From an uncultured bacterium (GTDB lineage: Bacteria > Hydrothermota > Tepidihabitantia > CAYHGV01): a stretch of 51,313 nt of DNA. A model generated the notes under the pieces. It saw nothing but the letters and a program-made list of their open reading frames with translations. It had not been told where the DNA came from and ran no database searches. The first letter of the stretch is position 1, and every line of letters begins with the position of its first letter. Location of the stretch: NCBI GenBank assembly GCA_964356135.1, contig CAYHGV010000002.1, forward strand, positions 1 to 51,313, given 5' to 3'. Positions 1-6,442 of the stretch are shown piece by piece. The position numbers and the translations under genes were made by a program.

Positions 1-1046
1 TTAAGAAAGGATACGCCACTTTTTTCAAATTTCCACACCTTTTTATATTATCTCCCAGGCAGTTGATCAAAGCAATGGTTGAAGTTATGAAACCCGAACC
101 TGATTTAACTATTTGTGACCCCGCCTGCGGCACCGGGGGGTTTATGCTCGTTGCACATGATTATATTGTTAAAAACTACAAACTTGATAAAGACCAAAAG
201 CAACATTTGAAATATAAGATGTTCAAAGGTAAGGATATCGTCGATGCGGTAGTCCGATTATGCGTTATGAACATGTATTTACACGGCATCGAAGCGACGA
301 TCGAAAGTGGCGACAGCCTTATTTCTGACCCGGGTGAGCGCTTTAATATGGTCTTAACAAATCCACCGTTCGGGAAAAAGAGTAGTGTTACTATTATTAA
401 CGGCGAAGGCAAATCCGATAGAGAATCTTTAACTTACGAACGACAGGATTTCTGGGCAACAACATCTAACAAGCAACTGAATTTTCTCCAGCATTGCAAA
501 ACTCTGTTAAAAATAAACGGCCGGTGCGCCATCGTTGTCCCTGATAATGTCCTTTTTGAAGGCGGTGCCGGCGAGACGGTACGCAGGAAACTGCTTCATG
601 AATGCGATGTCCATACCCTTTTACGACTTTCCACCGGCATTTTTTATGCCCAGGGTGTTAAGGCAAATGTCCTATTCTTCGATAGAAAACCGGCAAGCGA
701 AAAACCCTGGACCGAGAAACTATGGATATACGATTTAAGAACTAATAAGCACTTTACCCTCAAAGAGAATCCTTTGCGTTACGAGGATTTACAGGACTTT
801 ATCAAGTGTTACAATCCAGCAAAACGAAATGATAGAAAAAAAACCGAACGGTTCAAGGTGTTTACCTATAACGAACTGATGCAAAGGGACAAAGTAAGCC
901 TCGATATATTCTGGTTAAAGGACGAGAGCCTCGAAGATTACGATAACTTACCCGCACCCGACATTCTCGCCCGCGAAATCGCCGACAACCTCGACTCGGC
1001 CTTAGAACAGTTTAGAGGCATTTATGAGGATTTAAGTAAGAAATAA
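1..1046 (+). CDS. hsdM: Type I restriction-modification DNA methyltransferase subunit HsdM (N6-adenine), 5'-partial at window edge
   Basis: Frame 3 has no stop from nt 3 to the TAA at 1044-1046, and the listed ORF starts at an internal TTG (nt 63). SPRQLIKAMVEVMKP resembles the TPRPLIK segment of EcoKI-type HsdM. AdoMet motif I is DPACGTGGF and catalytic motif IV is LTNPPFG. The first ~20 codons align less well. Confidence 0.85.
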   Translation, partial: KKGYATFFKFPHLFILSPRQLIKAMVEVMKPEPDLTICDPACGTGGFMLVAHDYIVKNYKLDKDQKQHLKYKMFKGKDIVDAVVRLCVMNMYLHGIEATIESGDSLISDPGERFNMVLTNPPFGKKSSVTIINGEGKSDRESLTYERQDFWATTSNKQLNFLQHCKTLLKINGRCAIVVPDNVLFEGGAGETVRRKLLHECDVHTLLRLSTGIFYAQGVKANVLFFDRKPASEKPWTEKLWIYDLRTNKHFTLKENPLRYEDLQDFIKCYNPAKRNDRKKTERFKVFTYNELMQRDKVSLDIFWLKDESLEDYDNLPAPDILAREIADNLDSALEQFRGIYEDLSKK

Positions 1047-1062
1047 AATAAAAGGAGGAACA

Positions 1063-2763
1063 ATGGCTGCATTAAGATCAGAAACGAGACCAACCACAAT
1101 GACGGTTGCTGAGTTGGTTAGATTATTCAAAAGGGGTGGAATACAGATACCAGAAATTCAAAGAGATGTGGTCTGGGAACCAGAAGACGTCAAAAATTTA
1201 ATAGATTCGATATTTCATGATTACCCTTGTGGGAGTTTAATAATGTGGGAACCACGAATTAAAGATGAACACATCATAAGGGATTTAATTAGACCTGAGA
1301 GACAGAAAATGTTTCCTGAGCCACCCCAATATTTTCTGGTTGATGGTCAACAACGTTTAACGGCACTTACGGCAATCATTATTGGATCAGATTTTATAAA
1401 TAATCTCGAACGTGAATCCGAATACAATTGGCCAACATTTTACTTTAACATCGACTTGAATCTAAATAAGACAAAAAATATCCAAAAAGCCATTGAAGCT
1501 TCATCGGAAACCGGCTACTACGCCTTTCCTTGGGTACCAATTCAAGCCTTGTTTGATGGAAATTTAGAAAGTTCCAAGAATTTCAAAAAGCTTTCAGATG
1601 AAAAACGCAAACAACTATCCGATTTTAGAGATATGATATCTACTTACTCTTTTCCAGTACAAATAATCAAAGGATTTGATTACCCTGATATTGGTGAAAT
1701 CTTTTGGAGGGTCAATTACCTAGGTACTCAGATTTCAGGAGCCGAAATTCACATTGCTAAAATTATACCTTACTGGAAGGGAATAGCAAAAGAATTTAGA
1801 AAATACTTGAGAGAGCTTGAAAAAGATAAATATATACTTGACCTAACTTTCTTAATGCGATGTTTAACCGCTTTAGGAACAAATCAATCTAAAATTGATA
1901 AGTTCTCTGATCAAGTAAAAAGCGGCAAATTGTCTAAAAATGCATTAAATCGCATTTGGAAAACGAGTAGAAAACATGTTGACAAACTCGTTCGAATTCT
2001 GAAATCAAGTGCATATCTTGATAAAACGAAATACTTCACATCAAAGAATGTCTTAGTACCTCTTGTTTATTATCTAAGTAAGAATGCCGGACGATATATT
2101 GACGAAAAAGCTATACTTCGATTCTTTTTCTTTTCTCAACTTGGAAATCATTACTCCGGCAGCACTGATACTGTCTTAAAGAAAGATTTACAACCTTTAT
2201 CAAAGCCAAAGACCAGCATAAAAAAAGCTTTACAGGACCTTTGCTCAGATATCGAGAGCGAAACAAAACAGGAATATAAAGGTCTCTATGTCGCCCCTCA
2301 TAAAATAATGGGTTCCCCCACTAAGAATCCATTAATTTTGTTGATGTATGCGATCATGAAAAAATCCGGGGCAACAGATTTTGATCTAAGCAATAAACGT
2401 TACCTCGATGAAATTGCACCTGATGAAATTCATCTCCATCATATATTTCCATACGACTTTATGATGAAGAGTAAAGAAGCTAAAGCATATCAGCTTTCAA
2501 AAGGTTTAACAGCTAGTGAATTTCGTGCAGAAGTTAATGACATTGCAAACCTAACTTTCATAAGCAAGAATCAGAATAGTAGTATCGGCAAAGAATCTCC
2601 ATGGCAGTATATGCCTAATTATACGACAAAAGATAACCTCAAAAACCATTTCATACCAACTCAAGAGAAATATTGGCGACCTCAAAAATATGATAAATTC
2701 CTCAAAAAGCGAAGAAAATTACTTTCAAAAGCAATTAATAAATTCCTCAAATCAATGAAATAA
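1063..2763 (+). CDS. DUF262 + DUF1524 protein (GmrSD-like type IV restriction / ParB-like NTPase fused to His-Me nuclease)
   Basis: SD AAGGAGG lies just upstream of the ATG. N-terminal DUF262 signatures are IPEIQRDVVW and FLVDGQQRLTAL. The C-terminal HNH/His-Me-like DUF1524 signature is EIHLHHIFP ... NDIANLTFISKNQNSSIG. The gene starts 16 nt after hsdM. Confidence 0.75.
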   Translation: MAALRSETRPTTMTVAELVRLFKRGGIQIPEIQRDVVWEPEDVKNLIDSIFHDYPCGSLIMWEPRIKDEHIIRDLIRPERQKMFPEPPQYFLVDGQQRLTALTAIIIGSDFINNLERESEYNWPTFYFNIDLNLNKTKNIQKAIEASSETGYYAFPWVPIQALFDGNLESSKNFKKLSDEKRKQLSDFRDMISTYSFPVQIIKGFDYPDIGEIFWRVNYLGTQISGAEIHIAKIIPYWKGIAKEFRKYLRELEKDKYILDLTFLMRCLTALGTNQSKIDKFSDQVKSGKLSKNALNRIWKTSRKHVDKLVRILKSSAYLDKTKYFTSKNVLVPLVYYLSKNAGRYIDEKAILRFFFFSQLGNHYSGSTDTVLKKDLQPLSKPKTSIKKALQDLCSDIESETKQEYKGLYVAPHKIMGSPTKNPLILLMYAIMKKSGATDFDLSNKRYLDEIAPDEIHLHHIFPYDFMMKSKEAKAYQLSKGLTASEFRAEVNDIANLTFISKNQNSSIGKESPWQYMPNYTTKDNLKNHFIPTQEKYWRPQKYDKFLKKRRKLLSKAINKFLKSMK

Positions 2764-2977: not shown

Positions 2978-3691
2978 TTAAATTGCTTCTGCAGAAACTT
3001 TAAAAGTCGCTAAAATCAGACTTTTTGCATAGTGAGGATGGATGAACCCTCGTCCCAGTATATTCTGAAGAAAAAGGCGATAAAGGATAATTATTAGTGC
3101 TCGGACCCCATCTTTTATCGCTTTCCTTTTCCTACCCAGGGCTCGAAATGACTCTGCCCGGCAAATATAGTAGTGTGCTGCCATCAGTTTCGGTACTAAA
3201 GAAATAGCTTCGGTGAGATCTTTTATAGCCTCTCCATATTCACCAATTTTAAGAAAGAGTGCCCCTCGATTGCCCCAAATAGACCAGTTTTTCGGGTCGA
3301 GCTCAATGGCTTTTGTAAATCCAGCCAACGCTCTATCATTCATTCCCTTCTCTTTGAATAAAAAAGCCTGGCGATTAAATTCTTCACCGGTAGTTGGTGT
3401 GAAATCAACATCAAACACATCATTCACGATGACCTTCTCCTCAGTCCTCAACACATCGTCAATAAAATCAACGCTGACGGTAACCGTTTCCCCTTTTCGG
3501 TAGCCGTAGGTTTTTACGAAGGCGTTGTAGACCTTGCCGACATAGACTGGGTCGACCGGGTAAAATTTCCCGGTTGGGTCAGTGCCGATAAGCGACTCAA
3601 TCAAGCCGCGATTCAATTTCTTTTTCCCATCCGCTCGGATTATCCCCTGGCGGCGGAAATGGTTAAAAATGGCTTGGGCATAGGTAATCAT
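2978..3691 (-). CDS. TPR-repeat protein with unassigned N-terminal domain
   Basis: ATG 3691 lies 2 nt after the stop of the upstream ORF (3694), so the two are translationally coupled. TPR-like repeats are AFLFKEKGMNDRALAGFTKAIELDP and WGNRGALFLKIGEYGEAIKDLTEAISLVP. I recognise no motif in the first ~100 aa. Confidence 0.6.
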   Translation of the reverse strand: MITYAQAIFNHFRRQGIIRADGKKKLNRGLIESLIGTDPTGKFYPVDPVYVGKVYNAFVKTYGYRKGETVTVSVDFIDDVLRTEEKVIVNDVFDVDFTPTTGEEFNRQAFLFKEKGMNDRALAGFTKAIELDPKNWSIWGNRGALFLKIGEYGEAIKDLTEAISLVPKLMAAHYYICRAESFRALGRKRKAIKDGVRALIIILYRLFLQNILGRGFIHPHYAKSLILATFKVSAEAI

Positions 3692-3693
3692 AT

Positions 3694-4734
3694 TTATTTT
3701 TCCTTGATTATTTTAGGTAGAATTTCCTCCAGTTTCTCTTTTCCTATCCAATGTAGAGATTTTTTTAACCATTCCATAGAGCGGCAGTTTTTAGAAGTGC
3801 ATTCAATTAGCCACTTAGCATCGAGAGTCTTATCTTTATCAGTTTCATCTGATTTGGTAAGGCCCAGCGTATAATCGGAAGGGCCTTCGTGTTTAATGTT
3901 TTCTATTCGCTTGACCTGAAAACTTACTTCACTTTTGTCGGAATTTACAGGAAGCCCGAGTTCTTCTCTAATAGTTTTGCCGTCTTCAGCTTCGGTTTTG
4001 GTTATTATATCAATATCTTTCGTCGTTCCACCCCGCCAAGCAGGACAGTGGAAACCTCTTTCGTGAAGATTTAAGAACAGGAGAGTTTCAAATTCAAGTG
4101 GGCTGAGACATTCGATAAGCTCTGTAGAATCTTTAGGAAGTTGCATGGCCTCTAGTTCATTCATAACCCATCGTGCTGCTTGTATATGCCAAAATTCTTT
4201 TTCTTGATTTTCCTCCAGTTTTTTGAAGGTTACACTGCTAAAAGCTCGGCTATTAGGAAGCGTAGCAAGTATATGTGGTATCTTAGCGAGTTCTTTTGAA
4301 TGAACCACTTCGCAATAGATATATTTAGGAATAATTTCGCTTTCTTTATATTTCCAATTTTCTTTAACGCCGTCATTATATTTCTTTATCATATCATCTC
4401 CAGCCAAGTCACAGACTTTATCGCCACTAATTTTAAGAATATGTAGCTTTCCTTTATTAAAGACGAGGAACCTGCTTTTTTCTTTATTGTTTTCTACTGC
4501 CGTAAAAAATTCTTTTATTTGACCCCAGTCCCTTTTTGATATTTTGCTATGCTCTAGTGGACCTGTATGATTTATATTACTTCTGATTTCCTCAGATTTT
4601 ATTCCACCAAAATAGATTGCTACTGCAGGGCAACCTAAAGCGTTTTGCGAGTTTTCTAATTGTAACCAGTAGTTAGCTAAGGAATTTGATACACCTAATT
4701 TCATCCAATAAAAATCTATCTTTTCATTCGCCAT
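3694..4734 (-). CDS. Mrr-like PD-(D/E)xK restriction endonuclease domain protein with novel N-terminal domain
   Basis: The C-terminal LSPLEFETLLFLNLHERGF...TKDIDIITK...VSFQVKR fits the Mrr_cat pattern (FE..L...GF, D-x-D, Q-x-K-R). The N-terminal ~220 aa are unassigned. The track ORF extends to 4860, but ATG 4734 (MANEKIDFY) has the SD AAGGAGG 5 nt upstream, so 4734 is preferred. Confidence 0.65.
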   Translation of the reverse strand: MANEKIDFYWMKLGVSNSLANYWLQLENSQNALGCPAVAIYFGGIKSEEIRSNINHTGPLEHSKISKRDWGQIKEFFTAVENNKEKSRFLVFNKGKLHILKISGDKVCDLAGDDMIKKYNDGVKENWKYKESEIIPKYIYCEVVHSKELAKIPHILATLPNSRAFSSVTFKKLEENQEKEFWHIQAARWVMNELEAMQLPKDSTELIECLSPLEFETLLFLNLHERGFHCPAWRGGTTKDIDIITKTEAEDGKTIREELGLPVNSDKSEVSFQVKRIENIKHEGPSDYTLGLTKSDETDKDKTLDAKWLIECTSKNCRSMEWLKKSLHWIGKEKLEEILPKIIKEK

Positions 4735-4799
4735 AAACACCTCCTTTTTAATCCTTTCACTAATGTTATTATCACTTAAGCACTTGTCAATATTTTTCA

Positions 4800-5048
4800 T
4801 CAGTCTATTATTCCGTTTTTGACGAGCCATCTTTTCATTTCGCCTAATCGTTTTTCCCATTCTTCTATCGTCCTTTTGCCGTTTTCAATTGAGGACTCTA
4901 ATTCCCTAATAAACTCCAGAGGTTTATTATGTTGCCGGGTCTTTATAAGGATGTCAATGATACAGGCTTGATTTTCTTTGAAATCCGCTACAATCTTCTC
5001 CCGCTCCTTGTATTCGGTATAAACCCTGGATACAAGGGGGGACAGCGA
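4800..5048 (-). pseudogene. Start-less 82-codon open frame (possible C-terminal gene remnant)
   Basis: Hand translation of the minus strand gives SLSPLVSRVYTEYKEREKIVADFKENQACIIDILIKTRQHNKPLEFIRELESSIENGKRTIEEWEKRLGEMKRWLVKNGIID*. It is bounded upstream by TAG (5049-5051). It has no in-frame ATG/GTG/TTG until 10 codons before the stop, and it abuts the repeat block at 5101-5160. Confidence 0.25.
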
Positions 5049-5100
5049 CTATTTTCCGTTAAAGCGCCGAAATCGCAGTAACCGCAGGAGACGATAGAAT

Positions 5101-5160
5101 GAGCAAGGGAGATTGGGAGCTGAGGTGCGAGGAAATTTAACAAAAATAGAACGCAGAAAC
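5101..5160 (-). repeat. Dispersed repeat copy A (pairs with 6326-6393)
   Basis: gagcaagggagattgggagc..tgaggtgcgaggaaatttaacaaaaatagaacgcagaaac is near-identical to 6326-6393 apart from an 8-nt insertion and a few substitutions. The pyrimidine-rich strand is the minus strand. Confidence 0.8.
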
Positions 5161-5240
5161 CGCAGAAAGGTTTCAGACTACCTGTGCAGGAGTGAAAATC
5201 AAAATCTTATCTGCCCCTTTCCCCCACCGTAAGTTTATCC

Positions 5241-5362: not shown

Positions 5363-6250
5363 ATGCAAATCATATCGGCGACTGAATCGCTATTGAATAA
5401 ATCTGAAGAAGAGGTTTGGTTTCGGGGGGAAGCGTATGCGGATACGGGCAGAGTTACGATAGTAAGGGCGGACGATAAGGGAGTTGAAGCGATAGCGAGC
5501 GGCACGAAAAAGTATAAAGTCTCACTAAAATTTGTTGCCAATGGGATCAGCCGGGATTGCTCCTGTCCTTATCCGAAGGGAATTTGCAAGCACATGGTTG
5601 CGACGGCGATTATTTGGGACGAAATGCGTAGGATTAAAAGACCCGATAAAAAAGCAATAAAATCTTATACCATTGCCCCGCCAGCAGTTTCACGGCGGGA
5701 AATAGATATACTTTTCAACGACCCCTTAAATGCTAATTTAAATATACTCCGGATTGCCGCTGATGTTTTTGCCCGCTCGCCACGTGAACATAGCCGGTTA
5801 CCCAACTGTCCTAAAATTGACTTCGACGATAAAAGCCCTTTGAAACTTAAAGAGATAGAAAAGGCCTTTCGGGAAATGGAACGCTGGGGGAAACGGTTGA
5901 CTTATGATCCCTATTTCTGCGCCGGCGAAATGGCAGCCGCATTTTGCGAGTTATTACAGGTGATTGAAAAACGGATTTCTGTTTCTGAACCCGGCGTGGC
6001 CATCCTTATTATGGCTCATTGTGTTGATTGGTATTACCGGGGATTTAATCAAATGGTTGATAGCAGTGACGGAGTCTGGCTTTTTCCGACAGTAAGAATC
6101 GGAAAGGTAGTTGCTCTCTTAAAAGAAAAATATCCTTCCCATTCTGCCTGGTTAGATTTTGAAAAGGTAGTAAAAAGGGTTGGGGAATGGTGGGGGGAAC
6201 CGGAGTTGAATAGAGAGGTAATCGCGGGCTGGAAAGATAGCCGACTTTAA
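5363..6250 (+). CDS. SWIM zinc-finger domain protein
   Basis: CSCPYPKGICKHMVATAIIW matches the CxCxnCxH SWIM finger. The rest is helical and unassigned. Confidence 0.75.
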   Translation: MQIISATESLLNKSEEEVWFRGEAYADTGRVTIVRADDKGVEAIASGTKKYKVSLKFVANGISRDCSCPYPKGICKHMVATAIIWDEMRRIKRPDKKAIKSYTIAPPAVSRREIDILFNDPLNANLNILRIAADVFARSPREHSRLPNCPKIDFDDKSPLKLKEIEKAFREMERWGKRLTYDPYFCAGEMAAAFCELLQVIEKRISVSEPGVAILIMAHCVDWYYRGFNQMVDSSDGVWLFPTVRIGKVVALLKEKYPSHSAWLDFEKVVKRVGEWWGEPELNREVIAGWKDSRL

Positions 6251-6325
6251 GAAAACCACATTGAGTATTGGGTAATGGGACGATCAAGCAACAATAGAAC
6301 GGAGCACAACAGGAATCGCTGGAAG

Positions 6326-6393
6326 GAGCAAGGGAGAATGGGAGCAGGGGAGCTGGGGTGTGATGAATTGAACAAAAATAGAACGCAGGAAAC
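6326..6393 (-). repeat. Dispersed repeat copy B (pairs with 5101-5160)
   Basis: gagcaagggagaatgggagcaggggagctggggtgtgatgaattgaacaaaaatagaacgcaggaaac is a direct repeat of copy A, so the two copies bracket the SWIM gene. Confidence 0.8.
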
Positions 6394-6442
6394 GTCTTTT
6401 AAACAATAAAGCTATTGAGTCAATAAAATATGAATATCTGCG

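Follow-up and report, generated by a model that had tools for sequence, protein, structure and literature searches.

The reader of Mrr is a winged-helix domain, Mrr_N. 'A substantial variety' of type IV enzymes in which an EVE domain is joined to a PD(D/E)XK nuclease has been predicted, and archaeal YTH-like domains are also fused to PD(D/E)XK nucleases (Bell et al. 2020, PMC7641849). Modification-dependent endonucleases of the PUA superfamily, including TspA15I (EVE-HNH) and YenY4I (EVE-DUF3427-PD-(D/E)XK), were tested in a screen in which PD-(D/E)XK fusions were rare and most of the characterised members were HNH enzymes (Lutz et al. 2019, PMC6765204). The stretch of 51,313 nucleotides (nt) analysed here (the window) is an entire contig (C2) of the 161-contig, 2.78-Mb genome of an uncultured bacterium (G000). 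Its minus strand carries gene A, which encodes a predicted two-domain nuclease, and directly behind it gene B, which encodes a small protein with tetratricopeptide repeats (TPRs). We favour, with moderate confidence, the view that gene A encodes an autonomous, horizontally acquired, single-chain type IV-like restriction endonuclease of an unannotated family, in which a PUA-like reader would be joined to a Mrr_cat-like nuclease.

The gene A family resembles the EVE/YTH-PD(D/E)XK enzymes (PMC7641849) in that its members are single chains with a predicted reader at the N terminus and a PD-(D/E)xK domain at the C terminus. Both groups are patchily distributed, are frequent in archaea and occur in neighbourhoods of defence or restriction-modification (RM) genes. 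However, the N-terminal domain of gene A is not detected by the Pfam models for EVE, YTH and ASCH or by an hhalign comparison with EVE domains, and shows only a weak likeness of fold. As in the PUA-superfamily endonucleases (PMC6765204), a sensing domain, predicted here to be PUA-like, is coupled to an endonuclease and rarely accompanied by a methyltransferase; the DUF3427 domain of YenY4I is absent from gene A. With E. coli Mrr and the Pfam Mrr_cat (PF04471) enzymes, which are modification-dependent restriction effectors as the gene A family would be, the family shares, in register with genuine Mrr_cat domains, a glutamate in a helix, an aspartate at the start of a beta-strand and a QxK motif in the next strand, but it differs from Mrr in having a probable beta-barrel-type domain of ~175 amino acids (aa) and a Trp-rich C-terminal extension. 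The combination of a reader with a PD(D/E)XK nuclease has already been described as a class, and it is the gene A family itself that is unannotated.

Nucleases combined with TPRs are found elsewhere. In WOR-3 genomes, a gene of the same TPR family as gene B directly follows a gene of the PD-(D/E)xK fold, a tandem PDDEXK_3 gene, mostly at a distance of 0-3 nt; in contrast to the window, the upstream gene there belongs to a different PD-(D/E)xK family and has no reader domain. The antiviral Avs/STAND ATPases also combine a Mrr-like effector nuclease with TPR repeats, there as the sensor, whereas the window has only ~3 TPRs and distributes the parts over separate small proteins. Membership of the Avs/STAND group was rejected, as neither protein has a STAND or NTPase domain (Pfam, NCBIfam, PADLOC).

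In the favoured reading, the N-terminal domain, which would be PUA-like and resemble YTH, EVE and ASCH domains, would serve to detect a modified base in DNA that enters the cell, and the rigidly attached C-terminal Mrr_cat-type PD-(D/E)xK domain (E216, D242, Q273-x-K275) would cut. Gene A would have arrived horizontally in a small defence island beside hsdM and a GmrSD-type gene, and would need no partner. Gene B would derive from a separate WOR-3-specific family. It is presumably co-transcribed with gene A because it abuts that gene by 2 nt, but would not be a conserved component of the nuclease system, and recombination at its 5' end would most likely have brought it into its place beside gene A. 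The features of the two genes are as follows.

3694..4734, minus strand: gene A, predicted two-domain nuclease of 346 aa, stop codon TAA at 3694-3696 (open reading frame (ORF) list with revised start)
4210..4734, minus strand: N-terminal domain of gene A, aa 1-175, probable PUA-like beta-barrel and candidate reader (Foldseek, conservation)
3697..4134, minus strand: Mrr_cat-like PD-(D/E)xK domain of gene A, aa 201-346 (hhalign, Pfam on relatives, conservation)
4087-4089, minus strand: E216, catalytic candidate
4009-4011, minus strand: D242, catalytic candidate
3916-3918, minus strand: Q273, catalytic candidate
3910-3912, minus strand: K275, catalytic candidate
2978..3691, minus strand: gene B, orphan N-domain, ~3 TPRs and a short tail, 237 aa (ORF list, Pfam)
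3392-3691, minus strand: orphan N-domain of gene B, aa 1-100 (no Pfam match)
3077-3379, minus strand: TPR repeats of gene B, aa 105-205 (Pfam)

Domain architecture of the gene A protein

The gene A protein matched nothing in Pfam, NCBIfam and PADLOC (even at E<=1) or in PHROGs. A word-indexed search of 5.8 billion clusters returned only three relatives. Scoring of a 4-sequence profile against 1.84 billion representatives gave 311 representatives at E<=1e-3, of which 103 reached E<=1e-30. The members are mostly ~300 aa long and are matched by the profile over both halves, and those with a name are called 'hypothetical protein' (e.g. WP_022931912.1 of Treponema bryantii). The nearest relatives, many of them archaeal, are 32-33% identical to the gene A protein, the closest being at 33%. 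Sequence profile searches of the PDB with the 4-sequence and with an 86-sequence profile yielded chance matches only. Long variants whose N-terminal domain contains a large charged insert were also observed (518 aa at L012/L042:502-2058 and 426 aa at L001:6001-7281).

A preliminary description of this DNA placed a Mrr_cat-like PD-(D/E)xK core at the end of the upstream protein and made its case depend on conserved catalytic residues; the comparisons bear out both points. The motifs LSPLEFETLL..RGF, KDIDII and FQVKR are present in the gene A protein, and the catalytic candidates are nearly invariant in the alignment of 86 members (E216 99%, D242 100%, Q273 99%, K275 98%). P153, T169, T217, L218 and W322 are likewise at least 98% conserved, and K12, N17, F76, K137, L210, G235 and G236 are conserved at 93-95%. 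The C terminus ends in a conserved Trp-rich helical tail (W308, at 90%, W322 and W329). As a reference for Mrr_cat, 15 diverse genuine domains from WOR-3 genomes were used, all above the Pfam cut-off. The C-terminal domain of the family aligned with these over 70 columns (hhalign E 4.2e-5, probability 70%), in a register that puts 'FE' on E216, 'GID' on D242 and 'QxK' on Q273/K275, whereas the N-terminal domain, used as a control, gave E 0.27. The Pfam Mrr_cat model was weakly matched by 20 of the 86 relatives at E<=0.1 (best E 1.1e-5), and no other family recurred. A scan of the bacterium's own genome with PF04471 gave no match at 1e-8.

The AlphaFold2 (AF2) model calculated from the 86-sequence alignment, with a predicted local distance difference test score (pLDDT) of 93.2 and a predicted template modelling score (pTM) of 0.91, shows a helix at 212-224, strands at 243-246, 269-274 and 288-290, and then a helix at 306-314. 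This order of secondary-structure elements, with a further helix between strands 243-246 and 269-274, fits a PD-(D/E)xK core (alpha-beta-beta-beta-alpha-beta). A fourth strand at 229-232 appears only in a first, low-depth model from four sequences, which was discarded (pLDDT 63). The in-register alignment, the Pfam matches among relatives and the conserved E/D/QxK residues support the assignment of the C-terminal core as Mrr_cat-like.

The N-terminal domain is found in no domain library. Neither the gene A protein nor any of the 86 relatives matched Pfam EVE (PF01878), YTH (PF04146) or ASCH (PF04266) at E<=0.1. PF04146 found nothing in 401 archaeal genomes and control genomes either. A Foldseek search with the whole gene A protein, rather than the isolated N-domain, as the query returned YTHDF2, THYN1 (EVE), YTHDC1, 2ar1, 3eop and 2g2x as the top PDB matches (E 0.03-0.8), with target-normalised template modelling (TM) scores of 0.26-0.46. 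The best of these was YTHDF2 (0.46, E 0.034, probability 0.75). The YTHDC1 match has a root-mean-square deviation of 4.8-5.9 Å over ~160 columns, the THYN1 EVE structure is one with 5-methylcytosine DNA, and 2ar1, 3eop and 2g2x are EVE/ASCH-like. In the BFVD viral library, ASCH-domain proteins and an uncharacterised myovirus protein matched at E 4e-3. The best fold matches are uniform in kind, all being PUA-like readers of modified bases. Within the family, positions 9, 10, 41, 42 and 76 are aromatic in 85-99% of the 86 members, and the polar residues K12, N17, K137 and T169 are conserved alongside them.

A reader role is plausible because the only fold matches of the N-terminal domain are YTH, EVE and ASCH proteins, and the model-based comparison makes a divergent PUA-like reader of modified bases a fairly probable identity for it. 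The preliminary description had found this region unassignable to any sensor domain, had described the N-terminal domains of Mrr-cat enzymes in general as readers, and had proposed structure and profile-profile searches. No domain library did match the region; the structure search gave the weak PUA-like matches on which a reader role is plausible, and the profile-profile comparison with EVE domains was negative.

The same description gave the unassigned N-terminal part a length of ~220 aa, which does not hold, as it becomes ~175-200 aa with a revised start. The longest-ORF version of gene A spans 3694..4860 (minus strand, 388 aa). The true start is almost certainly the ATG at 4732-4734, giving 346 aa (MANEKIDFYW...), because a Shine-Dalgarno sequence lies 5 nt upstream, a promoter-like site precedes it and the homologues all begin at the equivalent position; the start at 4860 was rejected on these grounds.

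4746-4740, minus strand: Shine-Dalgarno sequence AAGGAGG, 5 nt before the ATG (sequence inspection)
4790-4763, minus strand: promoter-like TTGACA-16-TAACAT (sequence inspection)

Just upstream of this promoter, an 82-codon open frame without a start codon occupies window positions 4800-5048 on the minus strand. Its peptide is charged and helical, and it may be the remnant of a disrupted gene.

Gene B as a candidate partner of gene A

The two minus-strand ORFs lie 2 nt apart, as had been noted at the outset, and the coordinates (3694..4860 and 2978..3691) and the positions of the stop and the ATG agree. The junction reads AAA-TAA-AT-ATG (3689..3699, minus strand), with a 2-nt spacer between the gene A stop at 3694-3696 and the gene B ATG at 3689-3691, and an AAGGA sequence lies within gene A, 9 nt upstream of that ATG. 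Pfam matches in gene B are confined to ~aa 105-205 (TPR_1 E 1.6e-14 in two stretches, TPR_2 E 1.7e-13 in three stretches), in agreement with the initial view of 2-3 TPR repeats behind an unassigned N terminus of ~100 aa.

The preliminary description took gene B for a dedicated TPR partner, a pairing that ought then to recur in other genomes. On the nuclease side this fails. The 35 locus records with a nuclease homologue represent 33 distinct loci, none of which has a TPR neighbour. Thirty-one distinct loci were tested with phmmer, using the gene B protein and its WOR-3 relative as queries against ORFs of at least 60 aa, and no gene-B-like ORF was found even at E<=10. The immediate neighbours of the homologues differ from locus to locus, and the two closest relatives of gene A are solo genes flanked by convergent genes (called genes, precomputed Pfam tables). 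Codon composition also changes sharply at the junction. Gene B is not a conserved partner of the nuclease family.

Gene B has a family of its own. Among 5.8 billion clusters no full-length orthologue was found, only generic TPR proteins over 21-50% of the query. A scan of relatives identified a 297-aa protein of the genome G032 that aligns with gene B residues 4-206, N-domain included; the N-domains alone gave a pairwise E of 3e-6. A hidden Markov model (HMM) of four N-domains, with the window sequence left out, picked only the gene B ORF among the 24,462 ORFs of G000 (E 0.033). It scored 18.1 bits on the gene B N-domain, while 20,000 composition-matched shuffles reached 9.0 at most. These sequence comparisons support homology of the gene B N-domain to a tiny WOR-3 family, with members in 4 of 272 genomes of the phylum (G000, G032, G098 and G099) and on the metagenome contigs L028 and L029. 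Weak N-domain matches in G007 and G008 were rejected as AAA-type ATPase-like and DapA-like proteins, judged by sequence and with no family search.

Outside the window, the family gene always lies directly downstream of a 265-aa tandem PDDEXK_3 (PF13366, GxxExxY) gene or its remnant, with a gap of 0-3 nt in four loci and of 149 nt in the degraded G099 copy. Of all the observations, only this adjacency speaks for a functional link between nuclease and TPR protein. The recurrent pair, a 265-aa double PDDEXK_3 protein with a ~295-aa N-domain-TPR protein, was seen at L022, L051, L050, L028 and L029. HicAB-like genes are located near the PDDEXK_3/TPR pairs.

Genes A and B could form a real two-gene module, in which the gene B protein would bind the nuclease as a regulator, inhibitor or sensor-adaptor and the nuclease would be exchangeable, a tandem PDDEXK_3 in other WOR-3 genomes and a PUA-Mrr enzyme here. 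The 2-nt gap and the ribosome-binding site (RBS) inside gene A fit such a module, as do the homology of the N-domain to the WOR-3 family and the position of the family gene downstream of tandem PDDEXK_3 in G032, G098, G099, L028 and L029. In G000 itself, the tandem PDDEXK_3 orthologue (C30:9779-10576, L065; 57-64% identity) is followed by a repeat-rich spacer and no TPR gene, and the sole member of the gene B family sits after the Mrr-like gene A. However, such a partner is lacking at all 33 distinct loci with a nuclease homologue. Of 132 genomes of the class, 31 have the tandem PDDEXK_3 gene, and its pairing with the TPR gene is facultative: the TPR gene follows it in just three of the 31, the others having unrelated downstream genes. 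Decay of one partner can leave the other intact, as with the 101-aa PDDEXK_3 remnant in L028 and the fragmented TPR gene in G099 (L050). In the PDDEXK_3 tree, the backbone of which is unresolved, the TPR-linked genes do not form a clade. The rise in GC content at third codon positions (GC3) from 0.30 to 0.60 at the junction, with ~20 N-terminal and ~60 C-terminal aa missing from gene B, suggests a recombination joint, and the TPR part of gene B is nearer to generic TPR proteins than to the TPRs of the family. We therefore consider the module unlikely, although not negligibly so; the nuclease-TPR link was ranked second. It is a little less likely again that the N-domain-TPR family partners PD-(D/E)xK-fold proteins in a dedicated and exchangeable way and that the nuclease N-domain is, in addition, a new PUA-like reader family. 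If true, this would be a modular two-gene system of an undescribed kind, with a small TPR protein as the adaptor that gates the nuclease or directs it to its target.

A relocation of gene B from the PDDEXK_3 locus of G000 was also considered and rejected on the PDDEXK_3 tree, given its backbone and the scatter of the TPR-linked genes. No PDDEXK_3 remnant was found beside the window pair, the tblastn matches lying only at C30, C24, C6, C86 and window ~44.6 kb.

Distribution, composition and setting of gene A

Homologues of gene A were found in Archaeoglobaceae, Methanophagales and other archaea, and in Treponema, TA06, Terrimicrobiaceae (Verrucomicrobia) and Rhodoferax; the metagenome scan for relatives used the 4-sequence alignment. 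None of the 60 genomes sampled from the same class contains the family, no relatives were found in viral contigs or in plasmids, and no public sequencing runs holding the locus were found. Copies broken by frameshift or fragmentation occur at L013:5613-6525 (Treponema) and L016:2673-3235 (Methanophagales). The bacterial copies adjoin genes for HsdS, for GmrSD and HNH, for HNH, and for Mrr_cat with a Zn-ribbon, and gene A lies near hsdM and a GmrSD-type gene. The GC3 of gene A is 0.30 against a genome median of 0.58, so that it ranks among the lowest 1.4% of the genome's long ORFs. Taken together, the patchy distribution, the broken copies, the neighbourhoods and the low GC3 point to an accessory gene of restriction type that moves horizontally.

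At L013, the Treponema copy comes immediately behind genes for GmrSD and HNH, a setting that resembles the GmrSD neighbourhood of the window. In a set of Treponema-like contigs (L010, L036-L039), a gene for a 258-aa membrane-anchored Mrr_cat and Zn-ribbon protein (Mrr_cat E 1.7e-34) invariably lies 21 nt upstream of the nuclease homologue. In this subfamily, the two genes may be a genuine conserved pair.

Gene A might instead encode a PD-(D/E)xK enzyme that is not modification-dependent, with the N-domain as another nucleic-acid- or RNA-binding module, and function in repair or recombination, target RNA, or serve as an abortive-infection toxin. The archaeal homologues would agree with this, as they stand singly among housekeeping genes (enolase, PGDH, L32e, FEN1, CCA-adding enzyme) with no obvious defence islands. 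Neither Pfam (EVE, YTH and ASCH) nor hhalign (EVE) revealed a link at the sequence level, and in many proteins the ligand of YTH and EVE domains is RNA (PMC7641849). However, such a role is made improbable by the patchy spread of the family (0 of 60 relatives, scattered archaea, Treponema, TA06, Rhodoferax, Verrucomicrobia), the pseudogenised copies at L013 and L016, the RM or defence genes beside the bacterial copies, and the atypical composition, which fits an accessory mobile gene of defence type and not a housekeeping gene.

The compositional break falls exactly at the junction of the two genes, where GC3 switches from 0.17-0.37 in gene A to 0.60-0.67 in gene B codons 1-90 (270 nt). GC3 drops again after codon 90 (0.27-0.50, and ~0.35 for the rest of the gene). 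The homologues of gene B elsewhere are compositionally uniform. Gene B lacks the first ~20 residues and the ~60-aa C-terminal region of its family, and generic multi-TPR proteins match its TPR part more closely than the TPRs of the family do. Given the GC3 jump and the missing terminal parts, the junction is most simply read as a recombination joint at the 5' end of gene B, taken as a resident gene, an account that leaves the AT-rich TPR part outside. That gene B is a recent mosaic relic without a function of its own, a 5'-truncated resident gene fused to foreign TPR-coding DNA and open in frame only because the event is recent, would suit the host-like codons 1-90 between AT-rich flanks, the uniform homologues elsewhere and the lost termini, but is highly doubtful, as an intact 237-codon frame with a start and an RBS is unlikely by chance in AT-rich DNA and the TPR motifs are well preserved (TPR_1 E 1.6e-14).

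Several observations weigh against the favoured reading of gene A as an autonomous restriction enzyme. All fold matches in the PDB and BFVD are weak, with E > 0.001 and TM < 0.5, and the hhalign comparison of the N-domain with 30 archaeal EVE domains was negative (E 0.41). The gene A protein itself falls below the gathering score of the Pfam Mrr_cat model (PF04471), with no Pfam family at E<=1, and no PD-(D/E)xK structure is listed among the Foldseek PDB top 50 for the whole protein. The 2-nt spacing and the internal RBS resemble a deliberate operon, and the recurrence of gene B relatives behind another PD-(D/E)xK-fold gene hints that the adjacency may not be accidental.

The left end of the window carries two further genes of restriction type.

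3..1046, plus strand: hsdM, type I N6-adenine methyltransferase, truncated at the contig end (Pfam N6_Mtase E 4.9e-55)
1063..2763, plus strand: GmrSD-type (DUF262/DUF1524) type IV restriction gene (Pfam GmrSD_N E 4e-25, GmrSD_C E 3.6e-4; PADLOC HEC-05 E 9e-40)

Both are convergent to the gene A/gene B pair. The pair had been described as convergent to hsdM and a GmrSD-like gene in AT-rich DNA, which matches the Pfam assignments on the plus strand and the GC content, 0.35-0.44 around the pair and 0.52-0.54 further into the window. Within window 1-2763, the gene that follows hsdM after 16 nt is the GmrSD-type gene and not hsdS; the rest of the type I system is out of view because hsdM is cut by the contig end. 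On the other side of the pair, a SWIM zinc-finger protein is encoded at window 5363-6250 (PADLOC candidate PDC-S62 E 1.7e-12, DpdE N-terminus E 1e-6), and direct repeats flank its gene, at 5085-5162 on one side and 6310-6394 on the other.

Implications for type IV restriction and for PDDEXK_3 proteins

The case of genes A and B shows that tight gene spacing alone does not make a system. The recurrent PDDEXK_3/TPR adjacency offers a small, testable lead on the partners of the widespread and functionally obscure PDDEXK_3 (GxxExxY) proteins. The gene A family comprises ~300 clusters at 50% identity in archaea and several bacterial phyla and is called 'hypothetical' everywhere; it is invisible to present defence-system annotation because it has no Pfam, NCBIfam, PADLOC or PHROG model. 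Type IV restriction enzymes serve as tools for mapping DNA modifications, and if the N-terminal domain of gene A is a reader, it would be a new specificity module in the type IV restriction repertoire.

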